Part shown: piece by piece, positions 14,929 through 50,101 of the stretch | Numbering within the stretch: position 1 is the stretch's first letter | How the letters are laid out: each line of letters starts with the position of its first letter | DNA from: Oscillospiraceae bacterium | GTDB lineage: Bacteria > Bacillota > Clostridia > Oscillospirales > Acutalibacteraceae | Assembly: GCA_031270605.1 (NCBI GenBank) | Contig: JAISXG010000070.1 | Location: 10,482 to 74,481, forward strand | Length of the DNA: 64,000 bases | Direction of reading: 5' to 3' | Notes under the pieces: model-generated | Told to the model about the DNA's origin: nothing | The model's input: the letters and a program-made list of their open reading frames with translations, nothing else | Databases searched by the model: none | Made by a program: the position numbers and the translations under genes

Positions 14929-14944
14929 AGCATCATCCTGATAT

Positions 14945-15235: not shown

Positions 15236-15251
15236 ATACGCACATGCGTAT
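15236..15251. promoter_or_regulatory. 7-2-7 palindrome upstream of XRE paralogue 3 (operator candidate)
   Basis: atacgca-ca-tgcgtat, seen in the 137-bp AT-rich spacer. Confidence 0.35.
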
Positions 15252-15321
15252 TCCTAATAAAATTTTTAGAGTTTATTTCTGTTATATAAGGGATGAAAAT
15301 AAAAAAATTGCATTCTATCAA

Positions 15322-28261: not shown

Positions 28262-28327
28262 TAATCCTGCCCAACCGTTCAGGAAAAACCCGCACTATAT
28301 ATGCAGAACGCTTCCGGAGGCTTTCAA

Positions 28328-31553: not shown

Positions 31554-31811
31554 TTATTCGTCGTCCACTTTTTTCACGAGCAGGGTGTATGTGCCATCGT
31601 CATTGTGGAGCAGCTTTAAAATCTGGTGGCCCTCCTCTTTTACACTGCGGGGCACATTCTGCACCGGCTCACCGTCATTGAGGCGCACGGCAAGAATTTG
31701 CCCGTCGTCCAGTTCATCCAAAGCAACCTTGGTTTTCACAAAGGTCACAGGGCACACAACGTCTGTGATGTCAAGATTCTCGTCTATTTTAATGTCCATA
31801 ATAAAATTCAC
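31554..31811 (-). CDS. TusA/SirA-family sulfurtransferase
   Basis: 85 aa. LDITDVVCP conserved Cys context. Collinear with E. coli TusA. Confidence 0.7.
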   Translation of the reverse strand: MNFIMDIKIDENLDITDVVCPVTFVKTKVALDELDDGQILAVRLNDGEPVQNVPRSVKEEGHQILKLLHNDDGTYTLLVKKVDDE

Positions 31812-33925: not shown

Positions 33926-33969
33926 TACGGCTGCGGCGCTTAAATCAATGGGAGCGCCGTGTAGCCGTA
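33926..33969 (-). other. Interrupted 14-bp hairpin at the ABC-ATPase/metY junction
   Basis: tacggct-g-cggcgct ... agcgccg-tgt-agccgta spans the ATPase stop codon. There is no T run on the - strand. Confidence 0.3.
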
Positions 33970-34695: not shown

Positions 34696-34727
34696 AATAA
34701 AATCCTCTCGCTCGGATGAAAAACTCT

Positions 34728-35729: not shown

Positions 35730-36639
35730 AGCTTTCACCCCACCGATCGTTGGGTTTGTAGTGATAGAGCTCCCGCTCAAGCACAAACCATTTGCCGTTT
35801 TTCACAGCGCTCAAACTCTTCCATGCGGGCTGCGTTGCAATCATCTGCTCAAACGCTGTCTTGACCTCTTTATCTTGCATGCCCAATGCCGTCACAAAAA
35901 TATATTCGGGGTCCGCCTGCAGAATGATTTCAAGAGAAAGCTCTTCCAAAAGCGAAGGGTAGTCGTCCGCAATATTTTTTGCGCCCAAGTCACGCAGCAC
36001 TTCAACTGCCACCGTGCCCTTATTCTTCACACCCGCACCGTTGGAAGTGAACCGCAGCTGCAAAACTGTCGGCCCTGTTTTTCCTTCGGCACGCGCAAGC
36101 GCTCCGGCAATTTTCGCTTTGGGCGTTGTAATTAACTGTTCCTGCAAATCCTCCCGGCCGGTGAGGCGCAAAAAGAGTTCGGCAATCATTTTATAATCAT
36201 CAAATGTGTCGCAGGTGAAATAGGCGGCGGGGATTTTCATCGCCGAAAGCCCCTCTTTGAGCGCAAGCTGCCCCGCAATGTCCGCCGAAAGAATCACAAG
36301 GTCGGGGTTCAGCGAAGCGATTTTCTCAAGGCTCGGCTCTTTTGACGCTCCCACCAGCACCGCGTCGCCCACATCGAGCTGCCGCTCACCCGCCGCGTCG
36401 TCCGTCACACCCACAAGCGTTCCGCCCGCGGAAAGCCAGATGTCAGAATAAGAAGCATACACACAAACCACCCGCTGGGGGGCATCTGCAAGGGTAATGC
36501 GCGTTCCTTCGGTGTCCGTAAACGAATACTCTATATTCTTCTCAGTGGCAGAAGTCACGTCAACCTGCGTTGCGGGCCGGCAGGCCGACAACAGGAAAAG
36601 AATCAAAACAAATATACAAATAAATATCGTTTTTTTCAT
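35698..36639 (-). CDS. ABC substrate-binding lipoprotein (FecB/BtuF periplasmic-binding-protein class)
   Basis: 313 aa. Lipobox LLSAC after a hydrophobic signal peptide. Confidence 0.8.
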   Translation of the reverse strand: MKKTIFICIFVLILFLLSACRPATQVDVTSATEKNIEYSFTDTEGTRITLADAPQRVVCVYASYSDIWLSAGGTLVGVTDDAAGERQLDVGDAVLVGASKEPSLEKIASLNPDLVILSADIAGQLALKEGLSAMKIPAAYFTCDTFDDYKMIAELFLRLTGREDLQEQLITTPKAKIAGALARAEGKTGPTVLQLRFTSNGAGVKNKGTVAVEVLRDLGAKNIADDYPSLLEELSLEIILQADPEYIFVTALGMQDKEVKTAFEQMIATQPAWKSLSAVKNGKWFVLERELYHYKPNDRWGESYEKLAAILYP

Positions 36640-36685: not shown

Positions 36686-36714
36686 AGTATAGTATTTTTC
36701 CTATTACCTGTCAA
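36686..36714 (-). promoter_or_regulatory. Candidate sigma-A promoter of the ABC-metY-sir-carrier operon
   Basis: On the - strand: TTGACA, 17-nt spacer, TATACT. The leader would be only about 40 nt, leaving no room for a riboswitch. Confidence 0.5.
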
Positions 36715-36785
36715 CGATTTTATAAAATTCAGCAATGTATCCATAAAAAAGTTGCATTTGGTTAATAGTTTATATGGTTTCTACA

Positions 36786-36814
36786 TTGACTTTTCCATGC
36801 CCTCCCTGTATCAT
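36786..36814 (+). promoter_or_regulatory. Candidate sigma-A promoter of the SPL-hydrolase-MFS unit
   Basis: TTGACT, 17-nt spacer, TATCAT. Confidence 0.5.
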
Positions 36815-36855
36815 ACTATTCATATATAACATATAATTTTAGTATGAATAGTATG
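36812..36855. promoter_or_regulatory. 13-bp perfect inverted repeat overlapping the -10 element and early leader (operator candidate)
   Basis: catactattcata-N18-tatgaatagtatg. Confidence 0.45.
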
Positions 36856-36871
36856 TTTAAGGGGTGACAAG

Positions 36872-38230
36872 ATGGATTTTCCACAAAAAGGCCTTTCCAA
36901 AGAAGAGATTTTCCAAGCGCTGGACGATTATCAACAGAATGACGGCAACTATAAAAAGGGTAAAACCTGGAGCCTTGTTTATTATGCAGGCGAAGAGATT
37001 ACCCGTTTAACAGAAGAGGTTTATTGCAAGTTCTTTCACACAAACGCATTAAACCCCTTCGTTTTTCAGAGCCTTAAACGTCTTGAAACAGAAACTCTCG
37101 CAATGGCGGCGGATTTGTTTCACGGTGACGAACAGGTGGTCGGCACCCTCACCTCCGGCGGTAGCGAGAGCATTCTGATGGCGGTCAAGACCTACCGCGA
37201 TGAAGCGCGTGAGAAAAAGCCCCACATCACGCAGCCTGAAATGATCGCTCCCATCAGCGTTCACGCCGCTTTTGAAAAGGCCGCGCACTACTTCGGCGTC
37301 AAAATCATTCACGCTCCTCTTATGGATGATTTTCGTGTGGATGTCGCCGCGGTGGAAAAACTCATTACCCCCAACACTATTTTATTAATTGGTTCCGCAC
37401 CCCAGTACCCGCAAGGGGTTGTCGACCCCATTGAGGCACTTTCAGCTCTCGCATTAAAACATGATTTGCGGCTGCATGTGGATGCCTGCCTCGGCGGATT
37501 TACAATACCTTTTATAAAAGAGCTTGGCGGCGATATCCCCGCCTTTGACTTTGCGCTGCCCGGTGTGACCTCCATTTCGGCGGATCTACATAAATACGGC
37601 TTTGCGGCCAAGGGTGTTTCAGCGCTGCTCTACCGCAACGCGGGCATCCGGCAATATCAATATTTCGCATACGGCGACTGGCCGGGCGGACTCTTTATCT
37701 CCCCCAGCGCAACGGGCACTCGCCCCGGCGGCGCAATCGCCTCCGCGTGGGCGGCACTGAAATATATCGGCCGTGAAGGCTATCTTGAAATCACCAAAAG
37801 TGTTCTTGAAACCACAAAAAAAATTACGGACGGCGTGAAATCGATTCCCGAGCTATCTATTCTGGGCAATCCTCCCGCTGGAATTTTTGCTTTTGATTCC
37901 AAAACCCTCAATGTGCACGCGCTGGCGGATGTGCTGGAACACAAGGGCTGGATTATTGACCAGCAGGTCAATCCCTCCTGCTTGCACTTCATGGTCACGC
38001 CTGCTCATGCGGGCATTGCGGATGATTTTGTGCAGGATTTGAAAGAGAGTGTTGAAGAGCTTAAAGCGAACCCCGGCAACTATGCCGGCGGCAGCGCTGC
38101 ACTCTACGGCATGAGCGTCACGATTCCCGACCGGGGGCTTGTGAACTCGCTGATCAAAGGCGCATACAGCCGGTTCATGACCGAGGGCGGCACTTTCTCA
38201 TTTGAAGATTTGGGCAACATATTAGATTAA
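36872..38230 (+). CDS. Sphingosine-1-phosphate-lyase-family PLP enzyme (group II decarboxylase fold), soluble form
   Basis: 452 aa. Collinear with eukaryotic SGPL1: SGGSESILMAVKTYRD, HVDACLGGF and the PLP-Lys motif SADLHKYGFAAKG. No N-terminal TM helix. Confidence 0.75.
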   Translation: MDFPQKGLSKEEIFQALDDYQQNDGNYKKGKTWSLVYYAGEEITRLTEEVYCKFFHTNALNPFVFQSLKRLETETLAMAADLFHGDEQVVGTLTSGGSESILMAVKTYRDEAREKKPHITQPEMIAPISVHAAFEKAAHYFGVKIIHAPLMDDFRVDVAAVEKLITPNTILLIGSAPQYPQGVVDPIEALSALALKHDLRLHVDACLGGFTIPFIKELGGDIPAFDFALPGVTSISADLHKYGFAAKGVSALLYRNAGIRQYQYFAYGDWPGGLFISPSATGTRPGGAIASAWAALKYIGREGYLEITKSVLETTKKITDGVKSIPELSILGNPPAGIFAFDSKTLNVHALADVLEHKGWIIDQQVNPSCLHFMVTPAHAGIADDFVQDLKESVEELKANPGNYAGGSAALYGMSVTIPDRGLVNSLIKGAYSRFMTEGGTFSFEDLGNILD

Positions 38231-38247
38231 CAAAAAAGAGGGGACTC

Positions 38248-39951
38248 ATGATGTCACAAACTGCAACAAAAAAAACCGCGCTGGCACAAACACCGATTGC
38301 AATTATTGAAGAAACAACGAACTCGCTGCCCCGCGCGGCGTCGCCTGAAGAGGTTGGTATTTCTTCTCAGGCTATTTTGAATCTGCTGGATGAATATGAC
38401 AAGCAGGGGTATGAATATCATGGTCTCATGATTCTTCGCCACGGCAAGGTCGCATTTGAAACCTACCGCGCACCCTACGCAAAAGAGATTCCACACTCCA
38501 TCTATTCTTTTTCAAAGAGTGTGGCGGCCACATCCATCGGCTTTGCGGTGGAAGAAGGCTTGCTCTCCCTCCATGACCCGGTGGGCAAATTTTTCCCCGA
38601 ATACCGCCCCAAAAAAAACGCCGAGCGGTGGGACAAAATCACCATCTGGCATGTGCTCACAATGACAACGGGCTTTGCTTTTAACGTGTTTCATCAAAAC
38701 TCCAACCCCGACTGGGTAAAAGATTATTTACACTCCCATTTGCGTGACGAACCCGGTTCTGTGTTTCATTACACAAACGAAAACGCTTATCTTATTAGCG
38801 TCCTGATTCGACGCATTAGCGGGCAGACGCTGTTTGAATATTTGAAACCCCGCCTGTTTGACCCTCTGGGTATTGATGTGCCCTATTCAGAGGTTGACGG
38901 CGCAGGCAACCAGGGCGGCGGCTGGGGAATCATCTGGAAGCTTGAGGACTCCGCGAAATTCATCCAGTGCTACCTCAACAACGGCAAATGGAACGGCAAA
39001 CAGATCATCCCCGAATGGTGGGCAGTCGAAGCCACCAAAACGCAGGTATCGAACGCCGACAATATTAAGGCCGATTCTAAAGTGGGCTACGGCTATCAGT
39101 TCTGGATGTGCTCGCTCCCCAACACCTTTGCCTGCCGCGGCATGTTCTGCCAGCAGGGCGTGGGTATGCGCGACCATGACGCGGTGTTTGTATATGTGGG
39201 CGCCGAGGCAGACGAACAAAAGCCCTATGACGTGATTTATCCCCACTTCCCGGCAGGATTCTTGGATGAATCCGAAAAACATGAGGCTGACGAAACGGTG
39301 CTCAAAGAGCTGAAAAGCCGTGCGGAAAATCTCACCTTCCCCGCCCCTCCGGTTTCAAAACGTATTTCTGTCCTTGAAGAAAAGTGTAATAACAATGTTC
39401 TCCGTTTGCGCAAACACCTGTTTTTGAACACGATCGGCTTCCCTTTAAGCCTTTTGCCCATGACTGTCAACCAAATGGCGCTGGACCGCGCGGGCCATAT
39501 TGACAATGTCTATCTTGATTTCAAAGAAAATGAAGTATTCTTCACCTGGCAGGAAGGCAAAAAAGCGCAGTGGATTAACACCATTCCCCTCGGGCTTGAC
39601 GGCAAGTATCGCGAGGGCCGCATTAACCTTTCCGGCTTTGAACTTGACACTTACTCCTATGCCAACTGGGAGGATGACAAAACATTACTTTTAAACATCC
39701 GTCCCATCCAAACCTGCTGCAGCCGCACATTGCGAGTTGAATTCAAATCACACGACCGTGTAAAAATAATTCCCCGCTCGACACCTAGTTTCAAAAGCGT
39801 GGCGGATAATTTATACCACCTCTCCCATGCCTTTCTCAACAACAGCAAGCCGCTGTGCGCTCTTTCAAAATTCCTCTTTTCAATCGCCCCGGCGGTGATG
39901 GAGGCGAATTTTCATGGCAAACTCAAAAGCAGAAAGCAGTTTAAAAGGTAG
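38248..39951 (+). CDS. Beta-lactamase-fold serine hydrolase (family S12-like amidase/esterase), cytoplasmic
   Basis: 567 aa. SxxK (YSFSKS) and YxN (HYTNEN) motifs, no signal peptide, and a ~200-aa C-terminal extra domain. Confidence 0.75.
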   Translation: MMSQTATKKTALAQTPIAIIEETTNSLPRAASPEEVGISSQAILNLLDEYDKQGYEYHGLMILRHGKVAFETYRAPYAKEIPHSIYSFSKSVAATSIGFAVEEGLLSLHDPVGKFFPEYRPKKNAERWDKITIWHVLTMTTGFAFNVFHQNSNPDWVKDYLHSHLRDEPGSVFHYTNENAYLISVLIRRISGQTLFEYLKPRLFDPLGIDVPYSEVDGAGNQGGGWGIIWKLEDSAKFIQCYLNNGKWNGKQIIPEWWAVEATKTQVSNADNIKADSKVGYGYQFWMCSLPNTFACRGMFCQQGVGMRDHDAVFVYVGAEADEQKPYDVIYPHFPAGFLDESEKHEADETVLKELKSRAENLTFPAPPVSKRISVLEEKCNNNVLRLRKHLFLNTIGFPLSLLPMTVNQMALDRAGHIDNVYLDFKENEVFFTWQEGKKAQWINTIPLGLDGKYREGRINLSGFELDTYSYANWEDDKTLLLNIRPIQTCCSRTLRVEFKSHDRVKIIPRSTPSFKSVADNLYHLSHAFLNNSKPLCALSKFLFSIAPAVMEANFHGKLKSRKQFKR

Positions 39952-39986
39952 AAACTTCCGCCTCGCAGAGAAAGGATGATTTCATA

Positions 39987-41261
39987 ATGAGCCCTGCACA
40001 AACCGCAGCACTCTCCCCTCCAAAAATAAAAGAACAGCAAGCTTTGGGCATCGCCCGCATTTTGCTTTTGTCTCTGCCCTATGCTTGGATTTCAGTATTC
40101 AACAGTGTGCTTGACAACGGCCTGCCCGTTTTTCTTGTTGCTCCAATTGCAGACGGCGGCCTTGCTTTAAGCTTTACGGCCAAGGGCATTGTGATGGCGA
40201 TTGACAACATCCTCGGGTTGTTTCTACTGCCGCTGTTCGGCAAACTGTCAGACAGAAGTCAAACCCGCTTCGGCAAACGCTCGCCCTTCATCATCATCGG
40301 CGGCGCAGGCGCAGTCATTACATGGGCGGTCACCGGCCTTTTTCTCGGCATGCACGCAAAGTGGATGTTTTTGATTCTGCTTTCTTCGGCGCTCGGATTC
40401 ATCGCCATATCCCGCCCGGCGTCTCTTTCTCTGCTGCCGGACATGACGCCCCTCTCCCAGCGCCGCAGCGCCAACGCCATCACCCAGATTGTCAGCATTG
40501 TCTGCACCGTTGTGGGCATTTTATTAGTTTCTATTTTTGCCCCAAAGGGCTACGAAACCGTTTTTTACGGCACATCGGCCGTCATGCTGGTGCTGATTGT
40601 TTTATATCTGTTCACCGTGCGTGAAAAACAATGGGCTGCGGAAAGCGCTATTTTGATGAACGAAGACTCCGATGCAGTGCAAAGCACGCAATCCGGCAAT
40701 GCTTCCCGTTTTAACAGGCGTATGCTGCTCTGCGTTGTATTTTTCTTTTATGTAGCATATAACGGCCTTGTTTCCTCTCTCTCCAACTACGCAATGGAAG
40801 TGCTCCATCTCTCAAAAGATAAATTTGTGCTTCCTCAGGCAATGACGCTCGTAATGGCCTGTATCGTTGCCGTTCCTGTGGCGAAACTCTCCGCAAAGCT
40901 GCGGCGCAAAACATCACTGCTCATCGGTGTTGCAACCATGGGCACGGCGTTCACGGTTGCCGGGCTACAGAGCGGACTGAATGCATTGATGTTCATCAGC
41001 TTTTTGCTTGTGGGCGTGGGATTCGCTGCAGTCATCGTGAACCTTTACCCTTACATGCTGGAGCTTTCAGACCCCGATAAAATCGGCAGCAGCACAGGTG
41101 TTTTTAATACTGTGATGACGCTCGCCATGGTACTTACCCCCATTATGAGCGGCTGGCTTTCTGATCAAATCGGCATCATTATTTTGTTTCCCTACTGTAT
41201 CGCCGCGCTGGCGCTTTCGCTCCTTGCGCTTGTATGTATGAAAGATAAAAAGACAGGTTAA
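39987..41261 (+). CDS. MFS transporter (GPH / MFS_2-like loop motif)
   Basis: 424 aa, about 12 TM segments. Loop 2-3 motif GKLSDRSQTRFGKRSPFII. Confidence 0.8.
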   Translation: MSPAQTAALSPPKIKEQQALGIARILLLSLPYAWISVFNSVLDNGLPVFLVAPIADGGLALSFTAKGIVMAIDNILGLFLLPLFGKLSDRSQTRFGKRSPFIIIGGAGAVITWAVTGLFLGMHAKWMFLILLSSALGFIAISRPASLSLLPDMTPLSQRRSANAITQIVSIVCTVVGILLVSIFAPKGYETVFYGTSAVMLVLIVLYLFTVREKQWAAESAILMNEDSDAVQSTQSGNASRFNRRMLLCVVFFFYVAYNGLVSSLSNYAMEVLHLSKDKFVLPQAMTLVMACIVAVPVAKLSAKLRRKTSLLIGVATMGTAFTVAGLQSGLNALMFISFLLVGVGFAAVIVNLYPYMLELSDPDKIGSSTGVFNTVMTLAMVLTPIMSGWLSDQIGIIILFPYCIAALALSLLALVCMKDKKTG

Positions 41262-41294
41262 AACAGTTCACTTTAAAATTTGATAGTTTGTTTC

Positions 41295-41458
41295 TAGGCC
41301 TTGTTTGTAAAATAGGAATTTGACGAAAAGCGAGAGATTTTTTCGCAAAACAAGGCCAAAAATTGCAGGAATACTTGCCGTATTGCAAGATTTTTTAACG
41401 CAGATTTGCGGAAAAATATCCGTCTTTTGGGCAAGTTGTCATTTTCAAACAAGGCCTA
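41295..41458. repeat. 13-bp perfect inverted repeat pair bracketing the MFS/aminotransferase spacer, plus an internal third partial copy
   Basis: taggccttgtttg (41295-41307) and caaacaaggccta (41446-41458). The partial copy aaaacaaggcc is at 41347-41357. Confidence 0.45.
41363..41396 (+). terminator. Terminator-like hairpin plus T6 after the MFS gene
   Basis: ttgc-agg-aatac-ttgcc-gtatt-gcaa followed by g-a-tttttt. Confidence 0.45.
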
Positions 41459-41479
41459 ATAAGAAAGGATGGTCATAAA

Positions 41480-42814
41480 ATGCCCTCTTTAACAAAAGAA
41501 GAAGTTCTCGCACTTGATAAACAATATAACCAGCACCCTTGGCTGACCGGCACGGTGGAACCCCTCGCCATTGCCCGCGCCGAAGGTATTTATTTCTGGG
41601 ATTATGACGGTAAACGCTATTTTGATATGTCCTGCCAGTTGACCTGCTCAAATATTGGCTTCGGCAACGAAGCGGTCAACAACGCGATCAAAGCACAGCT
41701 TGACCGGTTTGCCTATGTCGCCCCCGCGCACGCGTTTGAAGCAAAGTCCGTGCTTGCCAAAAAGCTTGTTGAACTGGCCGGCGGCGGCATGGCAAAGGTG
41801 TTTTTCACCTGCGGCGGTTCGGACGCGAATGAAGCGGCCCTCAACATGGCCCGCACGGTCACAGGCCGCGCGAAGGTGCTTTCACGCTACCGCAGCTATC
41901 ACGGCTCAACGCTGGGCAGCGGCAACATCTCGGGCGACCCCCGCCGATTCTCCCTTGAACAACCTGCCGCAAACGGCTTTTTAAAATTTTTTGACCCTTA
42001 TGTTTACCGTTCGGACAGAGCATTTGAAAGCGACGCGGCAGCTTCAGCTTATTATCTCGGCCTGCTCGAATCGCAGATTCAGTATGAAGGCACAGACCAG
42101 ATCGCGGCGGTTTTTGTGGAGTCCGTCACCGGCGCAAACGGCGTAATCGTCCCGCCGGACGGTTATTTGCAAGGCCTGCGCGAGCTGTGCACCAGATACG
42201 GCATCCTGCTTGTGTGCGACGAAGTCATGGCGGGCTTCGGCCGCACGGGCAAAGCCTTCGGCTTCCAGCACTGGGGCGTCGAGCCGGACATCATCAGCTT
42301 CGCAAAGGGCGTTACCTGCGGCTATGTGCAGCTCGGCGGCATCATCATCAGCCGACAAATCGCCGACTTTTATAAAGACCACCTTTTCCAGTTCGGCCTG
42401 ACCTACAGCGGCCACGCACTGGCCTGCGCGGCGGGCGTCGCCTGTTTGGAGCTCTATGAAAGAGAAAACCTTTTTGAACGTGTCGCATCCCTCGGCAAGG
42501 TGCTGGGTGAGCTGCTCGAAGAACAAAAAGTAAAACATGCCTGCGTCGGTGATGTGCGCTACATCGGCCTGTTCTCGGCTCTGGAGCTTGTAAAAAGCAA
42601 AGAGACAAAGGAGCCTCTGGTTCCCTACGCAAAAGACGCGGAAGGCGTGATGAAGCGCATATTCGGCCTGCTGCGCGAACGCGGATTCTCCACCTACGGG
42701 CGTGAGAATAATATTAATGTGACTCCGCCCTTAACAATTACAGAGCAGGAGCTGCGCGAAGCCTTCGTGATTCTTGACGAAGTGCTCACGATTGTGGATA
42801 AAACCTTCATTTGA
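41480..42814 (+). CDS. Class-III (omega) PLP aminotransferase, taurine/beta-alanine:oxoacid transaminase-like
   Basis: 444 aa. GGSDANE, CDEVMAGFGRTG and ISFAKG (PLP Lys) motifs. Confidence 0.8.
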   Translation: MPSLTKEEVLALDKQYNQHPWLTGTVEPLAIARAEGIYFWDYDGKRYFDMSCQLTCSNIGFGNEAVNNAIKAQLDRFAYVAPAHAFEAKSVLAKKLVELAGGGMAKVFFTCGGSDANEAALNMARTVTGRAKVLSRYRSYHGSTLGSGNISGDPRRFSLEQPAANGFLKFFDPYVYRSDRAFESDAAASAYYLGLLESQIQYEGTDQIAAVFVESVTGANGVIVPPDGYLQGLRELCTRYGILLVCDEVMAGFGRTGKAFGFQHWGVEPDIISFAKGVTCGYVQLGGIIISRQIADFYKDHLFQFGLTYSGHALACAAGVACLELYERENLFERVASLGKVLGELLEEQKVKHACVGDVRYIGLFSALELVKSKETKEPLVPYAKDAEGVMKRIFGLLRERGFSTYGRENNINVTPPLTITEQELREAFVILDEVLTIVDKTFI

Positions 42815-42850
42815 CTGGTATTGCATCCGAAAGAAAGGAACGAACAATTT

Positions 42851-45319
42851 ATGGCAACTGTTATATATTCATCTCAGGAGCAGCGCCTGCAAAAAGAATC
42901 CAACAGCGGCGCCACAGGCTCGCGCGTGTCCGCCCTGCTTGAGCAGGTCCGCGCCGCCCGACCCGCCATCGACATAGAACGAGGCAAATATTTCACCGAA
43001 TCCTTCAAACAGACCGAAGGAGAAAAATTAATTCTGCGCTGGGCAAAAGCCTTATATCATTACGCGGCAAACGCTTCGGTTTATATTGACGACGGGCAGT
43101 TAATTGCGGGACGCATCGGCAAGGGCATCCGCTACGGCGTGCTTTACCCGGAGCTTGACGGCGACATTTTGGGCGAGGCCATCGCCTCCATCGCCTCCCG
43201 CGACACCTCCCCTTTTGACATCAGCGAAAAGGACAAGGGCATCATCCAAAACGACATCGCCCCCTACTGGAAGGGCAAAACCTTTCATGAGGCGCTCGCA
43301 AAGGCGATTCCCGCCGATACAAAGCCGCTCACATACAATAACGACGAAGAGTTCACCTCCCGTTTTGTCGTAAACGAAACCGCCTCTTTCCGTTCCTCCA
43401 TTCAATGGGTGCATGACTATGAAAAACCCCTGAAAATCGGATTTTTGGGCATTCGCGCCGAAGCGAAACAGGCCCTCTTTGCGCTTGACGAATTCAATCC
43501 GGTACATAATAACGAGAACAAGCCCTTTCTGCAGGCAATCATCCTTATGGCGGACGCGATCATTCTTTGGGCCCGCCGCCACGCGGAACTTGCCCGAAAA
43601 AAAGCCGCGGCCGAAACAAACCAAACGCGCAAGGCAGAGCTTTTGGAGCTTGCTGAAATCTGCGAAAGAGTGCCCGCCCACCCGGCGCGCACCTTCCATG
43701 AAGCCGTGCAGAGCCAATGGTTCATCCAGCTCTTCTCCCGCGTGGAGCAAAAAACAGGCACCATCATTTCAAACGGCAGAATGGATCAATATCTTTATCC
43801 CTATTATAAAGCCGACCTTGAGAGCGGCGCAATTACCCCCAATAAAGCACAGGAGCTGCTGGAATGCGTGTGGGTTTCCATGGCGCAATATGTCGACCTC
43901 TATCTCTCAAAAGCGGGCGGCGCGTTCAACGAAGGCTATGCCCATTGGGAGGCGGTCACCGTCGGCGGCCAGACGCCGGACGGGCAGGACGCAACCAATG
44001 ATTTGACCTACCTCATTTTAAAATCCAAGCGCGACTTTCCCCTCAACTATCCCGACCTCGCGGCGCGCATCCACATGCGTTCCCCCAGGCGTTATCTCTA
44101 TGACGTGGCGCAAACCGTCAAAGACGGCTCGGGCTTCCCCAAACTGATCAACGACGAGGAAGTCGTGCCCCTGCTGCTCGCGAAGGGCGCGCGGTTTGAC
44201 GAGGCCTATGACTACGCCGTTTCAGGCTGCGCGGAAGTCAGAATGCCCAATAAAGACACCTTCACCTCCCCCTGCGCCTATGTCAACTTTGCCGCGGCGC
44301 TCGAACTGGCTCTTTATAACGGCAAAATGCTGAAATACGGGGATGAACAGCTCGGATTGCAGACAGGTGAGCTGGAAGATTTTCAAGACTTTAATTCTTT
44401 CCTGCAAGCGTATCTTGCGCAGCAGAAACATTTGCTCAAGCATGCGTTCATTCAGCAATATCACGTGAACAAGCTGCGTGAGCATCATTTCGCCGCCCCG
44501 CTCTCCTCCGCGCTCAATGCGGTGTCCGTTGCGGCGCAAAGGGATATTCACACCGAATTCATCCCCGGCGGCATTGACCTTGGATATTATGAGTGCATCG
44601 GCTACGCCACGGTCATCGACTCCCTCGCGGCAATCAAAAAACTGGTGTTTGAAGAGAAAACCGTCACCGCCACCCAGCTCAAACAGGCCCTTGAAACCAA
44701 TTTTGAGAACGATGAGCTGCTGCGTCAGCGTCTGCTGCGCACCCCGGCCTACGGCAACGATGACCCCTATGCGGACGACTTCGGCAAGCTCATTGACAAA
44801 GAAGCCATCGCATTCACCGAAGGATATTGCAAAACGCTCGGTGTGCGGCTTGATTTGCGTTATGTGCCCTTCACCTCAAACGTGCCCTTCGGAAAGGTGA
44901 TTTCCGCGACGCCCAACGGCCGCTTTGCGTGGGCGCCCCTCTCCGACGGCTCGTCAGCCTCACAGGGTTCCGACAAAAAGGGCCCTGCGGCGATTCTTCT
45001 TTCAAATTTTCACACAAAGAACTATGACCGCAGCCACCGCGCCGCGCGCCTGCTAAATATCAAGTTCACCCCCGGCAGCATCGCGGGCAAAGAAGGCACA
45101 CAGCAGCTTGTGAATTTTATTGAGGGCTGGCGCGACCTGAAACTTTGGCACATCCAGTTCAACGTCATCAATCAGGAAACATTGCTAGCAGCCAAAAAGA
45201 ACCCCGAGCAATACCGTAACCTGCTTGTGCGCATTGCGGGATACAGCGCCTATTTCTGCGAGCTCTCGTCCGATTTACAGGATGATTTGATTTCACGTAC
45301 GGCGCACGGTGCAATCTAA
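42851..45319 (+). CDS. Glycyl radical enzyme of the Cys-x-Glu (eliminase/lyase) type, possibly a sulfonate C-S lyase
   Basis: C-terminal glycyl radical motif VRIAGYSAYF and thiyl loop VSGCAEV. NGRMDQYLYPYY and TFHEAVQSQWF are conserved GRE motifs. An ATG at 42851 or a TTG at 42821 could be the start. Confidence 0.85.
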   Translation: MATVIYSSQEQRLQKESNSGATGSRVSALLEQVRAARPAIDIERGKYFTESFKQTEGEKLILRWAKALYHYAANASVYIDDGQLIAGRIGKGIRYGVLYPELDGDILGEAIASIASRDTSPFDISEKDKGIIQNDIAPYWKGKTFHEALAKAIPADTKPLTYNNDEEFTSRFVVNETASFRSSIQWVHDYEKPLKIGFLGIRAEAKQALFALDEFNPVHNNENKPFLQAIILMADAIILWARRHAELARKKAAAETNQTRKAELLELAEICERVPAHPARTFHEAVQSQWFIQLFSRVEQKTGTIISNGRMDQYLYPYYKADLESGAITPNKAQELLECVWVSMAQYVDLYLSKAGGAFNEGYAHWEAVTVGGQTPDGQDATNDLTYLILKSKRDFPLNYPDLAARIHMRSPRRYLYDVAQTVKDGSGFPKLINDEEVVPLLLAKGARFDEAYDYAVSGCAEVRMPNKDTFTSPCAYVNFAAALELALYNGKMLKYGDEQLGLQTGELEDFQDFNSFLQAYLAQQKHLLKHAFIQQYHVNKLREHHFAAPLSSALNAVSVAAQRDIHTEFIPGGIDLGYYECIGYATVIDSLAAIKKLVFEEKTVTATQLKQALETNFENDELLRQRLLRTPAYGNDDPYADDFGKLIDKEAIAFTEGYCKTLGVRLDLRYVPFTSNVPFGKVISATPNGRFAWAPLSDGSSASQGSDKKGPAAILLSNFHTKNYDRSHRAARLLNIKFTPGSIAGKEGTQQLVNFIEGWRDLKLWHIQFNVINQETLLAAKKNPEQYRNLLVRIAGYSAYFCELSSDLQDDLISRTAHGAI

Positions 45320-45451
45320 TACGAATCCCTCATAAAAAGCTTGCTAAAAAATCCGCACAAAACCACATAAATCAAAGCTTTTGGTTGATTTTTTAGAGCT
45401 TTTTTAATCGGGAGTTCGTATCAATCTATTGAACAGTTCAGGGAGCGCAGC

Positions 45452-46300
45452 ATGACAGACCATGAAAAAACAGGCTATATTTTTAATATCCAGCACTTTT
45501 CTCTGCACGACGGCCCGGGCATCCGCACCAATGTGTTTCTCAAGGGTTGCCCTCTGCGTTGCCGCTGGTGCTGCAACCCCGAATCCCACGCGCTGCTGCC
45601 CGAGGCGGCGTTTGACAAGTCAAAATGCATTCTCTGCGGCGCCTGCTCTTTGGGCGCGAAAGAACCTGCAGTGCGCTTTGAACACGGTGAAAAGGTGATT
45701 GACAGGACGGCCCTGCATGCCAATGGCGAACGCCTTGCGCTGGTGTGCCCCACGGGCGCGATCAGCCTTTACGGCGAGCAGAAAAGCGTGGGAGAAATTC
45801 TTGACGAGGCCGAGCGTGACGCCGCGTTTTATTCCCGCGGCGGGGGCGGCATCACACTCAGCGGCGGCGAGCCTCTGTTTCAGGCAGAGTTCGCAACGGC
45901 AATTCTCCGTGAAGCAAAGCGGCGGCACATCCGCACCGCAATCGAAACCTGCGGACATGTGCCGTGGGAAACCCTGCGTGAGGCGGCTGAGCATCTTGAT
46001 TATGTGCTTTATGACATCAAAAGCCTGAATTCGGTAAGCCATAAAGAGCAGACGGGCGTGGGCAATGAGCAAATTCTTGAAAATTTCCGCCTGCTGTGCG
46101 AGCACTTCCCCGCCCTGCCGAAGCTGGTGCGCACACCTGTGATTCCCGAATTCAACGAACATGAGGCCCTCGAAATCAAGGCATTTGCCGAGAGTTTCCC
46201 GAACGTGACTTTTCAGGCGCTGTCCTATCATACCTTTGGCGTGAAAAAATACGCGATGCTCGGCAAAACCTATACAGGGTATATTAAAAATACAAATTAA
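45452..46300 (+). CDS. Glycyl-radical-enzyme activating enzyme (radical SAM)
   Basis: 282 aa. CPLRCRWCCNPE CX3CX2C motif plus a ferredoxin-like Cys insert (CILCGAC...CPTGA). Confidence 0.9.
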   Translation: MTDHEKTGYIFNIQHFSLHDGPGIRTNVFLKGCPLRCRWCCNPESHALLPEAAFDKSKCILCGACSLGAKEPAVRFEHGEKVIDRTALHANGERLALVCPTGAISLYGEQKSVGEILDEAERDAAFYSRGGGGITLSGGEPLFQAEFATAILREAKRRHIRTAIETCGHVPWETLREAAEHLDYVLYDIKSLNSVSHKEQTGVGNEQILENFRLLCEHFPALPKLVRTPVIPEFNEHEALEIKAFAESFPNVTFQALSYHTFGVKKYAMLGKTYTGYIKNTN

Positions 46301-46351: not shown

Positions 46352-47728
46352 TTATTTAATATTTGGCAGGCTCGCCGCGGCGACAGACTGCCCGACACGG
46401 CGGGACTTTTCATCCGGGATGTTCAGGCTGATTTTCTTTGCAAGCTCGGGGAATTCTTCATCGAGCACCTTTTGCGCATTCTCAAGCAAAATCACGCCGC
46501 CGCTGCCGCTTGTCACACGCCCCATAATCAAAACGTGCTTGATATCATAAAACTCTGCGTAATAGGCGACGGCATAGCCGAAATACACGCCGATGGTCTG
46601 ATAAATGTCAGCCGCGCGAGTGTCGCCCGCCACCATCAGCTCCTGCACCGCGCTCAGTTTTTCAGCCGGGCTCAGGGTATCGTCGAGTTCAATTCCCGCT
46701 GCGGGGGAAAGCTTGATGACCGCGTCCTGCGAGAAATATTTCACACCGCAGCCATAGTCGCCCGACCATTCGTCGGCCATCGCGCCTTCATAAAAATCCA
46801 CGGGCACAAAGGCAAGCTCATTCAGCCAGCCGGTAATATTGCCCTGGCCGTCCACATAGCCGCCCGCTTCGCTCGTGCCCATGGCAACGCCCAGCACATT
46901 GTTGTCGCCCAGGTCCATCGCGCCGGCAAGGGCGGTCACGTCGCCGTCGTTCGCCACCTCAACCGGAATGCCCTCGCCGATTTCTTTGGCAATGTCAAGA
47001 TACATATTCTTTACATGCTTCTCAAACTGTTCGTCCGGCACTTTGAGAAACAGGGACGCGATCATAATGCGGTTGTCAATATAAACGCCCGCGCTCGAAA
47101 CGCCGATTCCGTCCACCCGGGGCATGTGTGAGGCCGCCGTTTTCATGGACTCGAGAATGCCGTTATAATGATACATCGGGTCCGCATTGAGCTTGGGGTG
47201 CCAGATAACCTCTTCAGAATACACCGCCTCGCCGTCAATTACGGCGCTGACCTTGCGGTCGCTGCCGCCCGCGTCAAAGCCGATGCGGCAGCCGTCAAGG
47301 TGGCGGCCTGCAGGCGTTGCCTGCTCGTGGTTTTCGGGGGCATCGGCAAAGCCGCGCAGCTCCACCTCAAAATCCTGCTCATACACCCGCGCCATGAAGT
47401 GCACGTCAAAGTCGCGCAGGCCCTTGTCGCTAAACGCTTCTTTGATTTTGCCGCCCACAAGTTCGCTGCCGGCGATAATCAGCTTATAGCCGCCAACGAC
47501 CCACAGCAGGGATTTTGCCAGCCGCTCCACAAAGCGAAAATTTTCTTCGTCGTGGCCTGCGCCATCTTTGAAAATCCTTGTTTTATAAACGGTTGTATAA
47601 CCGTTGTGCCGCTCACAGCCAAGCACCAAATCCTGCCCGTTTTCCGCCGTCTGCTCACGCATCCGCCTGCAAACAACCGAAAGGGGTTGAAAACTCGGGT
47701 CAAGCGTCGCCTTTACTTTTAAATCCAT
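46352..47728 (-). CDS. ROK-family sugar kinase-like protein with a ~150-aa N-terminal extension
   Basis: 458 aa. IGFDAGGSDRK phosphate-1 motif at about residue 157. Confidence 0.65.
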   Translation of the reverse strand: MDLKVKATLDPSFQPLSVVCRRMREQTAENGQDLVLGCERHNGYTTVYKTRIFKDGAGHDEENFRFVERLAKSLLWVVGGYKLIIAGSELVGGKIKEAFSDKGLRDFDVHFMARVYEQDFEVELRGFADAPENHEQATPAGRHLDGCRIGFDAGGSDRKVSAVIDGEAVYSEEVIWHPKLNADPMYHYNGILESMKTAASHMPRVDGIGVSSAGVYIDNRIMIASLFLKVPDEQFEKHVKNMYLDIAKEIGEGIPVEVANDGDVTALAGAMDLGDNNVLGVAMGTSEAGGYVDGQGNITGWLNELAFVPVDFYEGAMADEWSGDYGCGVKYFSQDAVIKLSPAAGIELDDTLSPAEKLSAVQELMVAGDTRAADIYQTIGVYFGYAVAYYAEFYDIKHVLIMGRVTSGSGGVILLENAQKVLDEEFPELAKKISLNIPDEKSRRVGQSVAAASLPNIK

Positions 47729-47745
47729 TGTTTTCTCTCCTAAAT

Positions 47746-48891
47746 CTATTTCTGATTCTGAAACTTGATTTTGCCGCCAATCACAGTGGTTGAAATGTTG
47801 AATTCTTCATCCGCAATGATGATGTCGGCATCCTTGCCCACTTCAAGGGAACCCTTTTGCCCCTGCAAGCCGAGCACGGCGGCGGGGCTGAGGGACGCGG
47901 CATTGACTGCCTCCCAAACCGAAACATCGGCATTCTGCCAGAAATTCAGCACAGCCTTGTTGAGGGTGAGCACACTTCCGGCAATGGTTCCATCCTCGAG
48001 CCGGCACTCAATGCCCTTCAAAATCACCTTTTGCCCGCCGAGAGTGTACTCGCCGTCCGCAAGCCCACCAGAACGCAGACAGTCGGTAATCAGCACAAGC
48101 TTGTCCTTTTTCAATTTATAAACAATGTCAAACATGGCGGGGTGAATGTGGAACTTGTCACAAATCAGCTCCACGCTCACAGGGGTATTGAACGCCGCGC
48201 CCACAACGCCGGGGTCGCGGTGGGCAAGGGGCGTCATAGCGTTGAAGAGATGCGTCGCGTGGCGCACGCCCGCAAGCACAGAGTCGCAGGCCTGATGATA
48301 ATTCGCGTCCGTATGCCCCATGGAAACCACAACGTCACTGTTCGCGGCGATTTCACGCACTGCATGGAAACCCTCATCCATTTCAGGCGCCAAAGTCACA
48401 AGGCGAATGATGTCGCTGTTCTTAATAATCAAAGCCGCATCCGGCCTTTGAATAAACGCCTCATTCTGCGCGCCCTTTTTCTTTGGGTTCACATAAGGCC
48501 CTTCCGTATGGAGGCCAAGAATGGCGGTACCGTTCCATGCGAGACTTTTTTCTTTCAGCCCGCGCACGGTATCCGCCACCTGCAGCAGCTCTTCGCGGGG
48601 AATGGTGACGGTTGTGGGCAAAAATCCCGTTACGCCGTTTTTCACAAGCCCCTCGGCCATTTTTTGAATGCCCTCCGGGTTCGCGTCTGAAACGTCCTCT
48701 CCAAGATAACCATGAATATGAATATCAATCAGCCCCGGGGCAATAAACCGCCCCGCCGCGTCGATGATTTCCGTGCCCGTGGGAATGTCCGCCGCGTCAA
48801 GAATCCCCTGAGTTTTATGGTCAAACAAAAGCGCCTTGCCGGCAAGTACCCTGTCTTTTAAAATGATCTTTCCGTTTATAATCGCTTTCAT
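47746..48891 (-). CDS. nagA: N-acetylglucosamine-6-phosphate deacetylase
   Basis: MKAIINGKI...PGLIDIHIHG motif. The 464-aa track ORF is an upstream over-extension into the Gfo/Idh/MocA gene. An ATG at 48912 is an alternative start. Confidence 0.85.
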   Translation of the reverse strand: MKAIINGKIILKDRVLAGKALLFDHKTQGILDAADIPTGTEIIDAAGRFIAPGLIDIHIHGYLGEDVSDANPEGIQKMAEGLVKNGVTGFLPTTVTIPREELLQVADTVRGLKEKSLAWNGTAILGLHTEGPYVNPKKKGAQNEAFIQRPDAALIIKNSDIIRLVTLAPEMDEGFHAVREIAANSDVVVSMGHTDANYHQACDSVLAGVRHATHLFNAMTPLAHRDPGVVGAAFNTPVSVELICDKFHIHPAMFDIVYKLKKDKLVLITDCLRSGGLADGEYTLGGQKVILKGIECRLEDGTIAGSVLTLNKAVLNFWQNADVSVWEAVNAASLSPAAVLGLQGQKGSLEVGKDADIIIADEEFNISTTVIGGKIKFQNQK

Positions 48892-48922
48892 GTTCTGCGC
48901 AGTCCTTTCCATTTGCCGTCTT

Positions 48923-50101
48923 TTATCTTCCCTCAATTGTGTTGGGGTAGCTGCTCTTCCCTTCGCCGTCAAGGAAGGGAGAACGCGTGTCGTTTTCATA
49001 GGTTGCCCTGTCTGTTTCGCTGCGGAAATCCGGGATTTTCTGCTCCGCACCGCCATTGAGCGCGCTGTGCCAGCCGAGAATGCCCACCGCCGCCATTGTG
49101 GCCGCGCGGTAAACATCAAAATAGGGCTGTTTCTTCTCAATCAGGCATTCGAGGAACTCCCGCATCACCCAATAGTCGCCGCCGCCGTGACCGCAGTGCC
49201 ACGCCTCTTTCACCTTATCGCCGAAATCAGCGCGGTAAAAAGTCTCTTCCTTTTCCCCTTCCGGGATGCTCCAATGGTTATAGGTCACGCGGATCAACTC
49301 ATCATCGGGCCGGCCCATCTCCACACCGCCGTTTTTGCAGCAAAGGCGGTACCAATTACCGTGGGGGCCGTATTTTGCCCAGCCTGTAATCTTAAACAGA
49401 GCACCGTTATCCATTTCACAGAGCATCAGCGTTGCGGAATCCTTACGCACTTCATCCTCATATTCCCACTCGTTATGCTTTGCGAACACGGCTTTCGCGT
49501 TCACCGCAAGAGGCATGGAATCCGTCATATACATCAACGGCGCAAGAGAGTGCGTGAGATAATAGCTTGAGGGCATCAGTGCACGCCAATGCTTGCTGTG
49601 AGGCGTGTAATTCCGGTAATCCTGTGTTTCCATGGGATGCACATATTCCCCGTCGGCATACAGCACCTCGCCGAGGGTGCCGCGCTCAAACACCTGCTTC
49701 ATTTCCATTGCGCCTTTGTAATAGGGATAATTTTCGGCAAGCATGTAAGTACACGCAGTCGCTTCCGCGGCACGGCACAAGTCCACACACTCCTTGAGCG
49801 TGACGGCCGCCGTGGTTTCACTGAACACATGCACGCCCTGTTCCATCGCCTTTATGGCAAAGGGCGCGTGCTGGTCAAAAAAGTTTGAGAGCACCACCGC
49901 GTCCATACCCGAAGCAATAAATTCATCAAAATCCTTGAAAAATACAACATTCTCAGCGCAATGGCCGCGAATGCCGTCATAGGTCGCCTCATTCCGGTCA
50001 CAGACCGCAACCACCTCGGCAAGGCCCGAAAGCTTTGCCGCCTTTGCATAAGAGCTGCCGCGCCGCGCGCCAAACACACCCAATTTGATTTTTTCAGCCA
50101 T
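48923..50101 (-). CDS. Gfo/Idh/MocA-family NAD(P)-dependent oxidoreductase
   Basis: 392 aa. N-terminal Rossmann motif KLGVFGARRGS. Confidence 0.75.
   Translation of the reverse strand: MAEKIKLGVFGARRGSSYAKAAKLSGLAEVVAVCDRNEATYDGIRGHCAENVVFFKDFDEFIASGMDAVVLSNFFDQHAPFAIKAMEQGVHVFSETTAAVTLKECVDLCRAAEATACTYMLAENYPYYKGAMEMKQVFERGTLGEVLYADGEYVHPMETQDYRNYTPHSKHWRALMPSSYYLTHSLAPLMYMTDSMPLAVNAKAVFAKHNEWEYEDEVRKDSATLMLCEMDNGALFKITGWAKYGPHGNWYRLCCKNGGVEMGRPDDELIRVTYNHWSIPEGEKEETFYRADFGDKVKEAWHCGHGGGDYWVMREFLECLIEKKQPYFDVYRAATMAAVGILGWHSALNGGAEQKIPDFRSETDRATYENDTRSPFLDGEGKSSYPNTIEGR

Follow-up and report, generated by a model that had tools for sequence, protein, structure and literature searches.

The window, a stretch of 64,000 nucleotides (64 kb) from a gut Oscillospiraceae MAG, holds three plus-strand genes, for a taurine:2-oxoglutarate-type class III aminotransferase (41480–42814), a glycyl radical enzyme (GRE) of the IslA/IseG type, a putative isethionate sulfite-lyase (42851–45319), and a GRE-activating radical-SAM enzyme (45452–46300). 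All three open reading frames exist as described in a first-pass annotation of the locus. The unit is larger than that annotation recognized: upstream it reaches position 36872, and it also takes in a divergent operon for sulfur assimilation. On the same strand, the aminotransferase gene is preceded by genes for a PLP enzyme of 452 aa homologous to sphingosine-1-phosphate (S1P) lyases (SPL homologue; 36872–38230, assigned by PDB comparison), a two-domain beta-lactamase-fold serine hydrolase with the SxxK residues S87 and K90 (38248–39951; Pfam Beta-lactamase, 102 bits) and an MFS transporter (39987–41261; Pfam MFS_1, 156 bits). The divergent operon on the minus strand carries a small sulfite reductase gene together with genes of thiocarboxylate-type homocysteine synthesis. 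A consensus scan predicted a divergent promoter region serving both strands (36686–36814), with TTGACA-17-TATACT on the minus strand (36714–36686, 11 of 12 consensus matches) and TTGACT-17-TATCAT on the plus strand (36786–36814, 10 of 12), both of which are pattern matches only. Rfam models for riboswitches or other RNA control gave zero matches within the 64-kb window.

The start of the GRE gene had initially been set at TTG 42821, which has no ribosome-binding site. ATG 42851, preceded by AAAGGAA, is preferred, and the resulting protein of 822 aa is identical to NCBI MDR1630442.1 and comparable in length with its relatives (818–826 aa). Numbered from the TTG, the residues R191, Q195, C470 (in VSGCAEV), E472, R680 and G807 (in RIAGYSAYF) are located as quoted in the first-pass annotation, and the constant +2 offset that it had suggested is borne out by the alignment to IslA (PDB 7kq3), which pairs them with R189, Q193, C468, E470, R678 and G805. 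The literature, from which we took the roles of these IslA residues, describes them as sulfonate-binding and catalytic, as that annotation had stated, and the Arg/Gln/Arg triad is homologous to the sulfonate pocket of IslA, with all three residues in register.

The closest characterised systems are IslA/IslB of Bilophila wadsworthia and IseG/IseH of Desulfovibrio vulgaris, isethionate sulfite-lyases with their activases, which show the same glycyl radical and Cys-x-Glu motifs. Apart from the residues named above, the alignment shows that the GRE keeps S190, S191, I192, T310-G-T312, W374, V680 and F682 of IslA, so that its signature, RSSIQ/TGT/W/RYVPF, is that of IslA and IseG, and RIAGYSAYF is the same in all three. 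HpsG, the DHPS sulfolyase (PDB 6lon), belongs to the same group of C–S-cleaving GREs and has the Arg/Gln/Arg triad, but differs at the matching positions, with RSALQ, A-S-A and RYVPI. The HpsG-specific pocket residues (A191/L192, A310-S-A312 and Ile682), which we take to accommodate the extra CH2OH, are missing from the GRE, and no sulfoquinovose or DHPS genes were found among the genes annotated in the locus. In the PDB comparison, IseG scored 1147, IslA 1102 and HpsG 1076 bits. The identity of the GRE to IseG (63%) and IslA (60%) is no higher than that between IseG and HpsG (64%), and the assignment therefore rests on the signature residues and on a neighbour-joining tree of 84 sequences, a distance method given here with no support values. 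In this tree, the GRE lies inside the IslA/IseG clade, IslA and IseG are nested among 80 relatives, and HpsG is basal, branching outside the clade that holds the GRE. The NCBIfam label "(2S)-3-sulfopropanediol dehydratase / HpsG" (1421 bits) was rejected, as authentic IslA (1488 bits) and IseG (1557 bits) score above the GRE on the same model, which thus cannot separate the two enzymes. Signature residues and tree together indicate a sulfonate C–S lyase of the IslA/IseG type, as the first-pass annotation had suspected. In the literature searched, we found no enzyme assay of any member of the Firmicutes clade to which the GRE belongs.

The first-pass annotation suggested that isethionate may not be the substrate of the GRE, because the cluster has no reductase and the thiyl loop reads GCAEV, a form it considered atypical; hydrated sulfoacetaldehyde, taurine and DHPS would be examples of other sulfonates. 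The loop turned out to be the normal Firmicutes form, with GCAE[V/C] dominant among the 80 relatives. Characterised enzymes already vary in the residue between Cys and Glu and in the residue after Glu (IslA GCIEI, IseG GCTEA, HpsG GCTET); Cys468 and Glu470 align, and GCAEV differs from GCIEI and GCTEA at those two positions only. The GCVEP loop is found in other eliminases such as CutC. The exact signature of the window GRE is common to 18 of 81 GREs, and at least 10 related loci combine GCAEV with an Fe-alcohol dehydrogenase (Fe-ADH) and the aminotransferase, several of them also carrying TauABC-type importer genes. A different substrate would fit the smaller Ala469 in place of the Ile or Thr of characterised enzymes, as well as the Asn at the position of H685 of IslA, IseG and HpsG. 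However, both the GCAEV loop and H685N are also present in loci bearing an Fe-ADH, and the residues known to contact isethionate are all identical to those of IslA.

The absence of a reductase, noted previously for the cluster, holds for the whole 64-kb window. No Fe-ADH, SDR or Zn-ADH was found among the open reading frames scanned, and tblastn of the window with 33 Fe-ADH sequences from related loci gave zero matches. The only candidate elsewhere in the window, a GFO/IDH/MocA oxidoreductase, was discarded as part of an unrelated NagA/ROK group. As a sign of another substrate, this absence did not stand up, since the gap is local and orthologous clusters encode the Fe-ADH. It is present in 27 of the 39 aminotransferase-linked GRE loci and absent from 12; it lies directly after the activase gene in the related loci L083/L084 and L089/L090 and beside the cluster in L001, and the orthologous cluster of L032 has it as well. 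In particular, the closest relatives, which share the same upstream genes, encode it. A local activase gene is also absent from some relatives (L001, L002 and L081), and the completeness of a cluster therefore says little about its chemistry. A nearby reductase is a feature of the context rather than of the GRE enzyme. With the reductase present in orthologous clusters, isethionate remains the best substrate call that the sequences suggest, and we consider action on another sulfonate very unlikely. Neither the "atypical loop" nor the missing reductase gives grounds for proposing new chemistry; judged by its sequence, the GRE module is an ordinary Firmicutes member of the isethionate sulfite-lyase family.

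The neighbouring enzymes are in line with such an assignment. The aminotransferase is of the taurine type, as previously supposed: this class III enzyme aligns end to end (residues 1–442) with Toa of Bifidobacterium kashiwanohense (PDB 6jix, 498 bits), and its orthologues adjoin the GRE in 39 of 81 loci, mostly at 53–79% identity. Toa is known together with Fe-ADH sulfoacetaldehyde reductases of the SarD/TauF type, a pairing that recurs in the related loci but is missing from the window. The activase gene adjoining that of the GRE is of the cognate radical-SAM type, with a TIGR02494 score of 299 bits (cut-off 174) and a CX3CX2C motif at residues 33–40 (C33-x3-C37-x2-C40). An adjacent activase and a linked taurine aminotransferase are likewise found in the IslA/IseG systems, from which the window differs in its lack of a local reductase and of a TauABC or TRAP importer.

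Taken together, aminotransferase, GRE and activase would constitute the Toa/IslA/IslB-type branch of anaerobic taurine desulfonation, used here for sulfur scavenging, a reading to which we assign a probability of roughly 0.8 on the basis of homology, active-site conservation, phylogenetic placement and recurrent gene linkage. From these we infer the catalytic activities, the off-site reductase and the assimilatory flow of sulfur. Taurine would be transaminated to sulfoacetaldehyde, which an Fe-ADH encoded outside the window, and inside the cluster in relatives, would reduce to isethionate. The activated GRE would then take a hydrogen atom from C1 of isethionate, Glu would deprotonate the hydroxyl, and sulfite would depart from the Arg/Gln/Arg pocket, leaving acetaldehyde. 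Finally, sulfite would be assimilated through the divergent operon instead of being respired. In the known IslA/IseG systems the context is dissimilatory sulfite respiration or a microcompartment, whereas here it appears assimilatory, judging from the genes.

The divergent operon encodes a JAB/Mov34 metalloprotease (HcyD-like; 30080–30493, Pfam Prok-JAB, 92 bits) that could trim the C-terminus of a sulfur carrier, a ThiF/MoeB-type E1 adenylating enzyme (HcyF-like; 30471–31313, Pfam ThiF, 286 bits), a ThiS-type sulfur-carrier protein with the C-terminus GGGA, i.e., diglycine plus one residue (31310–31516, Pfam ThiS, 50 bits), a TusA-family sulfurtransferase (31554–31811, Pfam TusA, 70 bits), a small sulfite-reductase-like protein (31789–32658) and a MetY-type O-acetylhomoserine sulfhydrylase (32655–33893; Pfam Cys_Met_Meta_PP, 364 bits; TIGR01326, 420 bits), followed by three genes of a FecCD/Peripla_BP_2-type ABC importer identified by NCBIfam matches (33940–36639, with the ATPase at 33940–34731, the permease at 34728–35786 and the binding protein at 35698–36639), all on the minus strand. 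The small sulfite-reductase-like protein (289 aa) has a NIR_SIR domain with two ferredoxin-type clusters and shows homology to dsrA/B and nirA; it matches the AsrC-type model TIGR02912 at 145 bits, below the cut-off of this model, and its orthologues match Pfam NIR_SIR and Fer4. That a single operon encodes a carrier whose GG terminus is masked, an E1, a JAB protease and MetY presumably reflects protein-thiocarboxylate homocysteine synthesis of the HcyS type. The small sulfite reductase, TusA, MetY and the ThiS-like carrier, served by its E1 and the JAB protease, would then make homocysteine from sulfite. Krishnamoorthy and Begley reportedly described such a route (HcyS/HcyF/HcyD/MetY/Sir) in Wolinella succinogenes. 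Both operons encode a ThiS-like GG+1 carrier, a ThiF-type E1, a JAB protease, MetY and a homologue of sulfite reductase, while the window differs in its small, ferredoxin-fused sulfite reductase and in the addition of TusA and the ABC importer. The sulfite would come from a sulfonate lyase here, and in Wolinella from sulfate reduction.

The association between these genes and the GRE recurs in other genomes. Of 81 loci, 22 have sulfur-assimilation genes next to those of the GRE and 9 have siroheme genes there, the JAB protease gene adjoins GRE genes in about 12 related loci, the ABC importer trio is also found within the cluster in L081 and L089/L090, and in L083 the sulfur-assimilation genes are co-directional with the whole pathway.

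The upstream genes could extend the desulfonation pathway rather than compete with it. The SPL homologue shares the PLP fold of S1P lyases (StSPL, PDB 3mad; human SGPL1; yeast Dpl1p; Burkholderia S1PL2021) and scores 385 bits against StSPL and 377 bits against human SPL, but no more than 135 bits, reached by MfnA, against any decarboxylase in the PDB comparison. It keeps K311, the PLP lysine, the SPL-specific K317, Y105 and N126, and also D274 and H201. Unlike S1P lyases, it has no N-terminal membrane anchor or flexible segment, beginning at about residue 69–72 of StSPL, lies within sulfur-assimilation operons, and shows three changes in the phosphate head-group pocket (A103L, H129N and S353T), where S1P lyases have Ala or Thr at position 103. 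Among the 120 nearest homologues, nearly all have Leu103, Asn129 and Thr353, the variants being minor, and a scan for clade-specific residues gave no interpretable pocket change beyond these positions. The replacement of His129 by Asn was initially considered as proof of a non-phosphate substrate and then downgraded, since Burkholderia S1P lyases active on S1P have Q or R there, making H129 a weak marker.

In regard to gene linkage, clusters of three different gene orders combine the SPL homologue and the hydrolase with the aminotransferase, GRE and Fe-ADH; some of them include the MFS transporter and others do not, and their GREs come from four subclades. In orders A and C the transporter gene is next to that of the hydrolase, and in L089 a distance of 8 nt separates the SPL gene from the sulfite reductase gene downstream of it. 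TauABC-type genes are found in 0 of 8 SPL-linked loci and in 52 of 76 others (p = 2.4e-4); the MFS transporter stands in for the TauABC-type taurine importer that most related loci have. We further infer that the upstream trio probably produces intracellular taurine, starting from an N-acylated 2-amino-3-hydroxyalkane-1-sulfonate taken up by the cell. A metagenome scan with the SPL homologue retrieved L090, which duplicates the L089 cluster, and otherwise relatives of at most 59% identity in unrelated contexts, which add no further independent case.

A more specific proposal, our leading one though tentative, is that the MFS transporter imports capnine or a sulfonolipid of the N-acyl-capnine type, the hydrolase, as a proposed N-deacylase, removes the N-acyl chain, and the SPL homologue cuts the C2–C3 bond of the 2-amino-3-hydroxyalkane-1-sulfonate by retro-aldol cleavage, giving taurine and a fatty aldehyde. 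The trio would replace the taurine importer, and the two cleavage steps would parallel those of ceramidase and S1P lyase. PMC9304779 describes capnine as the sulfur analogue of S1P. A precedent for a taurine-freeing hydrolase linked to taurine-catabolism genes is given by the metal-dependent taurine-selective bile salt hydrolases (mBSH), which free taurine from a conjugate and are associated with Tpa/SarD/IslA genes (bioRxiv 2026.04.05.716488). In contrast to mBSH, the window hydrolase is a serine enzyme of the beta-lactamase fold and is paired with a C–C lyase homologue, which implies that the product it releases is not yet taurine. Amidohydrolase_3 genes of the mBSH kind were observed in 10 related GRE loci. 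Several features weigh against the sulfonolipid proposal. Homologues of the N129 subfamily are found widely, and below about 60% identity their gene contexts are unrelated. The structure model of the hydrolase (pLDDT 90.8) has family VIII esterases and amidases as its nearest folds, which are too generic to give a handle on the substrate, and a hydrolase predicted to be cytoplasmic, having no signal peptide, would together with an MFS importer suit a small polar substrate equally well. Capnine or sulfonolipid catabolism, or a lyase of this kind, was not found in the literature searched.

Alternatively, the SPL homologue could be a decarboxylase producing taurine from L-cysteate or a different sulfo-amino acid, which the hydrolase would release from a peptide or acyl conjugate. 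Such an enzyme would still deliver taurine, fitting the linkage to aminotransferase and GRE, and the fold is common to group II decarboxylases; MfnA is the best named NCBIfam match (256 bits, below the cut-off), and public annotations use decarboxylase-like names. The label "tyrosine/glutamate decarboxylase" given by NCBIfam, Pfam and public names was nevertheless set aside, as the PDB comparison favours S1P lyases. The protein is far nearer to these lyases and retains K317, listed among the substrate-binding residues of S1P lyase. To our knowledge, going by the MfnA and GadB sequences, K317 is absent from decarboxylases. Moreover, PMC11193023 describes a one-step cysteate sulfo-lyase route already known in anaerobes, and we consider a decarboxylase unlikely. 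It could also be argued that the protein is a true S1P lyase, acting on sphingolipids of the host or of Bacteroidetes, and a mere neighbour of the taurine genes, given its strong homology to S1P lyases and the cleavage of S1P in vitro by StSPL, from another Firmicute, as reported in PMC3148216. This would be highly improbable in view of the tight linkage to sulfite reductase and thiocarboxylate genes recurring in three gene orders, the sulfur-free product phosphoethanolamine and the altered head-group pocket.

Homology and gene linkage place the aminotransferase, GRE and activase of this gut Oscillospiraceae MAG within the known taurine/isethionate sulfite-releasing pathway, of which they are an unexceptional example. 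The IslA-type enzymes characterised until now serve sulfite respiration, while the genes of this locus point to a coupling of IslA-type GREs with sulfur assimilation in fermentative Clostridia of the gut, by way of siroheme synthesis, a small sulfite reductase and thiocarboxylate-dependent homocysteine synthesis. Furthermore, three independent gene orders link an SPL homologue and a serine hydrolase to taurine metabolism, and if these upstream genes make taurine from bacterial sulfonolipids, the pathway would be new. It is possible, although somewhat doubtful, that the locus is the first sulfonolipid catabolic route, leading through a serine amidase, a capnine-splitting SPL homologue, aminotransferase, reductase and IslA-type GRE to sulfite and on to homocysteine. 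If the sulfonolipid proposal is true, it would explain the recycling of sulfonolipids, which are abundant in the membranes of Bacteroidetes from the gut and the environment, and would assign a role to a large and so far unannotated branch of SPL-like enzymes, so that the "N129" bacterial SPL branch would include lyases for non-phosphate head groups.

The aminotransferase (41480-42814, +), the glycyl radical enzyme (GRE; 42821/42851-45319, +) and the activase (45452-46300, +) of the first-pass annotation were all confirmed as ORFs in the window. As the start of the GRE, the ATG at 42851, which is preceded by AAAGGAA, is more likely than the TTG at 42821, upstream of which no ribosome-binding-site-like motif was seen; read from the ATG, the 822-aa protein is the one recorded at NCBI. 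The six plus-strand genes at 36872-46300 match exactly the records MDR1630438-MDR1630443 of an Oscillospiraceae MAG, encoded there on a contig of 86,871 bp. The closest relatives are MAGs of Oscillospiraceae and rumen Clostridia, and those Oscillospiraceae relatives labelled as isolates Po218, Kf353 and the like presumably come from termite-gut surveys.

In regard to the identity of the GRE, the residues R191, Q195, C470, E472, R680 and G807 (numbered from the TTG) were each found as claimed, and both a HMMER alignment to the isethionate sulfite-lyase IslA (7kq3) and a MAFFT alignment pair them with R189, Q193, C468, E470, R678 and G805. Since the two alignments agree, and the roles of these IslA residues are confirmed by a GRE review of 2026 and by the paper on the IslA structure, the IslA numbering given in the first-pass annotation and its constant +2 offset proved correct. 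The best three PDB matches were the isethionate sulfite-lyase IseG (5ymr, 1147 bits), IslA (1102) and the DHPS sulfolyase HpsG (6lon, 1076), with identities of 63%, 60% and 56%, respectively, while the references themselves share 73% (IslA-IseG) and 64% (IseG-HpsG). Judged on sequence, overall identity cannot settle the type of this GRE, but signature positions can. The motifs R-S-S-(I/L)-Q, T-G-T, W374 and R-x-V-P-F are common to the window GRE, IslA, IseG and all but one of 80 relatives, apart from occasional changes at positions 190, 191 and 680; the HpsG signature reads R-S-A-L-Q, A-S-A, R-Y-V-P-I. In a neighbour-joining tree HpsG was basal, and IslA and IseG were nested in the radiation holding the window GRE. 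The NCBIfam "equivalog" label HpsG (1421 bits) was rejected as uninformative, because the same model scores IslA (1488) and IseG (1557) even higher. The GRE, the activase and the aminotransferase are new members of an already known kind. A second, divergent GRE (~45% identical) adjoining an activase fragment was observed in Desulfitobacterium sp. Sab5 (L069, ORF from 710); it lacks the thiyl Cys in the alignment, as GTVEH aligns at the Cys-x-Glu loop.

The thiyl loop GCAEV, previously regarded as atypical, does not stand out among these enzymes. Loop positions 469/471 differ among the characterised ones (I/I in IslA, T/A in IseG, T/T in HpsG), GCAEC or GCAEV is the form of the Firmicutes relatives, and 18 of the 81 GREs compared carry precisely the window signature, H685N included. 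Likewise, the missing sulfoacetaldehyde reductase was correctly noted, as none was found within the 64-kb window, but it is no misfit with the pathway, since an iron-dependent alcohol dehydrogenase of this type (Fe-ADH, Pfam PF00465) occurs in relatives with the same upstream genes. There it follows aminotransferase, GRE and activase (L083/L084; at 18881-19957 in L083), stands in the order GRE, activase, Fe-ADH, aminotransferase (L089/L090 and L032), or is transcribed away from the cluster's first gene (L001, at 3273-4307). Altogether, Fe-ADH is present in 27 of 39 loci with an aminotransferase beside the GRE, at least 10 of these 27 having GCAEV, and the usual order is GRE, activase, AraC-type response regulator, Fe-ADH, aminotransferase and a TauC/A/B-like ABC importer. 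Incomplete local clusters are common and no argument for new chemistry, because L001, L002 and L081 have not even an activase near the GRE. L010 (11811-13487) and nine other GRE loci hold, inside taurine/isethionate clusters, a ~560-aa amidohydrolase_3 protein, which probably belongs to a class described not long ago, the metal-dependent bile salt hydrolases selective for taurine (bioRxiv 2026.04.05.716488).

According to the proposed route, the aminotransferase would convert taurine to sulfoacetaldehyde, an off-site Fe-ADH would reduce it to isethionate, and the GRE would release sulfite and acetaldehyde by IslA-type direct elimination; sulfite would then pass through sulfide or a thiocarboxylate into homocysteine. 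This route from taurine to homocysteine, via isethionate and sulfite, is a well-supported prediction from sequence. A promoter-like pair lies at 36686-36814, and divergent from it runs a minus-strand operon encoding a Peripla_BP_2/FecCD ABC importer, MetY, a 289-aa sulfite-reductase-like protein, TusA, a ThiS-like carrier ending in GGGA, ThiF and a JAB protease, a composition which we take to be that of the Wolinella HcyS/HcyF/HcyD/MetY system. Of 81 loci, 22 have these sulfur-assimilation genes flanking the GRE and 9 have genes for siroheme synthesis there, and in L083 all genes from hemA through Fe-ADH share one orientation; from this we infer that the window GRE is a source of sulfite for biosynthesis.

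Several further features were observed in the window. The first genes of this operon, the importer at 33940-36639 (-), belong to the siderophore, haem and B12 class, and a FecCD-type importer is also part of the cluster in L081, L089/90, L052 and L067. In the stretch from the plus-strand promoter-like site to the gene starting at 36872, a 21-nt inverted repeat (36804-36863; 86% complementary, 18-nt spacer) could serve as an operator or form a hairpin in the 5' leader. Immediately adjacent to the JAB gene, 28301-29962 (+) encodes 553 aa with sigma-70 region 4 near the N-terminus and no annotation for the long C-terminal portion. A low-GC segment at 14422-15564 (-; 41.5% vs ~53% elsewhere), for which an Rfam search gave no match, contains a tandem array of four small, paralogous ORFs of the XRE-type HTH kind (86, 108, 79 and 80 aa), of which three end in SEFF(S/N)TPEF(D/N)(S/N)LEQE(I/L)(K/Q). 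Directly downstream of the activase, an amino-sugar module (46352-50101, -) comprises a ROK-like protein, NagA and a GFO/IDH/MocA oxidoreductase; its ROK-like and NagA genes have no counterparts in the related loci, and it has no connection to the taurine/GRE finding.

The unit extends beyond the genes flagged initially, with three same-strand genes upstream of the aminotransferase: a sphingosine-1-phosphate (S1P) lyase homologue (SPL homologue; 36872-38230, +), after a 17-nt gap a cytoplasmic serine hydrolase (38248-39951, +), and after a further 35 nt an MFS transporter (39987-41261, +). A 218-nt spacer (41262-41479) separates the latter from the aminotransferase and contains AAACAAGGCC twice (41348, 41447) and an inverse copy at 41292-41306; in L081 and L083 the two genes abut or overlap. 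The hydrolase has S87-x-x-K90 and no signal peptide, and its confident two-domain AlphaFold model (pLDDT 90.8) resembles family VIII esterases, the NylB amidase, PIB-1 and Lsa45.

Three gene orders were seen in which the SPL homologue and the hydrolase occur together with the aminotransferase and the GRE. The window shares with L001, L002, L064, L081 and L083-85 the order SPL, hydrolase, MFS, aminotransferase, GRE, to which activase and Fe-ADH may be added. In L089/L090, the block GRE, activase, Fe-ADH, aminotransferase is followed by the hydrolase on the opposite strand and then by SPL, sulfite reductase, TusA, ThiF, ThiS, JAB and a FecCD-type ABC importer. In L032/L170, GRE, activase, Fe-ADH and aminotransferase are accompanied on the other strand by siroheme genes, JAB, ThiS, ThiF, TusA, sulfite reductase and SPL, from which hydrolase and MFS diverge. 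The GREs partnering the SPL homologue fall in four subclades, and size matches suggest that SPL homologue and hydrolase occur together on at least 11 contigs. TauABC-like genes were found in 0 of 8 distinct SPL-linked loci, vs 52 of the 76 remaining loci with a GRE (p = 2.4e-4 by Fisher's exact test, the loci being phylogenetically non-independent). SPL homologues no more than 59% identical lie in unrelated surroundings, and a group 63-64% identical lies beside a sulfonate ABC importer of the SsuA type and a pair of variant radical-SAM proteins (NF045502). The operon of this group (L087:3793-11873, L088:3987-11844) also includes a GNAT; it lies close to metK, and in L087 to thiF, thiS and JAB genes as well, and looks like another anaerobic sulfonate cluster.

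Pfam and NCBIfam label the SPL homologue a decarboxylase, and a cysteate-type decarboxylase is the main alternative for its function. The label was set aside, as S1P lyases score far higher in the PDB comparison (Symbiobacterium enzyme StSPL 385 bits, human 377, MfnA 135, GAD at most 81); K311, K317, Y105, N126, D274 and H201 are kept. StSPL positions 103, 129 and 353, each listed as touching either the phosphate of the substrate or a phosphate ion in the site, are L/N/T here and, with few minor variants, in nearly all 120 nearest homologues, with the caveat that position 129 is Q or R in S1P-cleaving Burkholderia enzymes.

Capnine is 2-amino-3-hydroxy-15-methylhexadecane-1-sulfonate. Published work treats this compound as a sulfur analogue of S1P (PMC9304779). 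An SPL-type retro-aldol cleavage of capnine would yield exactly taurine, and N-acyl-capnines (sulfobacins) would need an amidase step first. By this analogy, our leading idea is a sulfonolipid feeder, in which the upstream genes would yield taurine from capnine or N-acyl-capnines; it would explain all three upstream genes together with the loss of the TauABC-type importer. In the literature searched, no publication dealing with the cleavage of capnine or sulfonolipids was found. The upstream genes would make taurine inside the cell, and the locus as a whole is a new version of a known pathway: an assimilatory IslA pathway in which an SPL-like, hydrolase and MFS feeder would replace the taurine importer.
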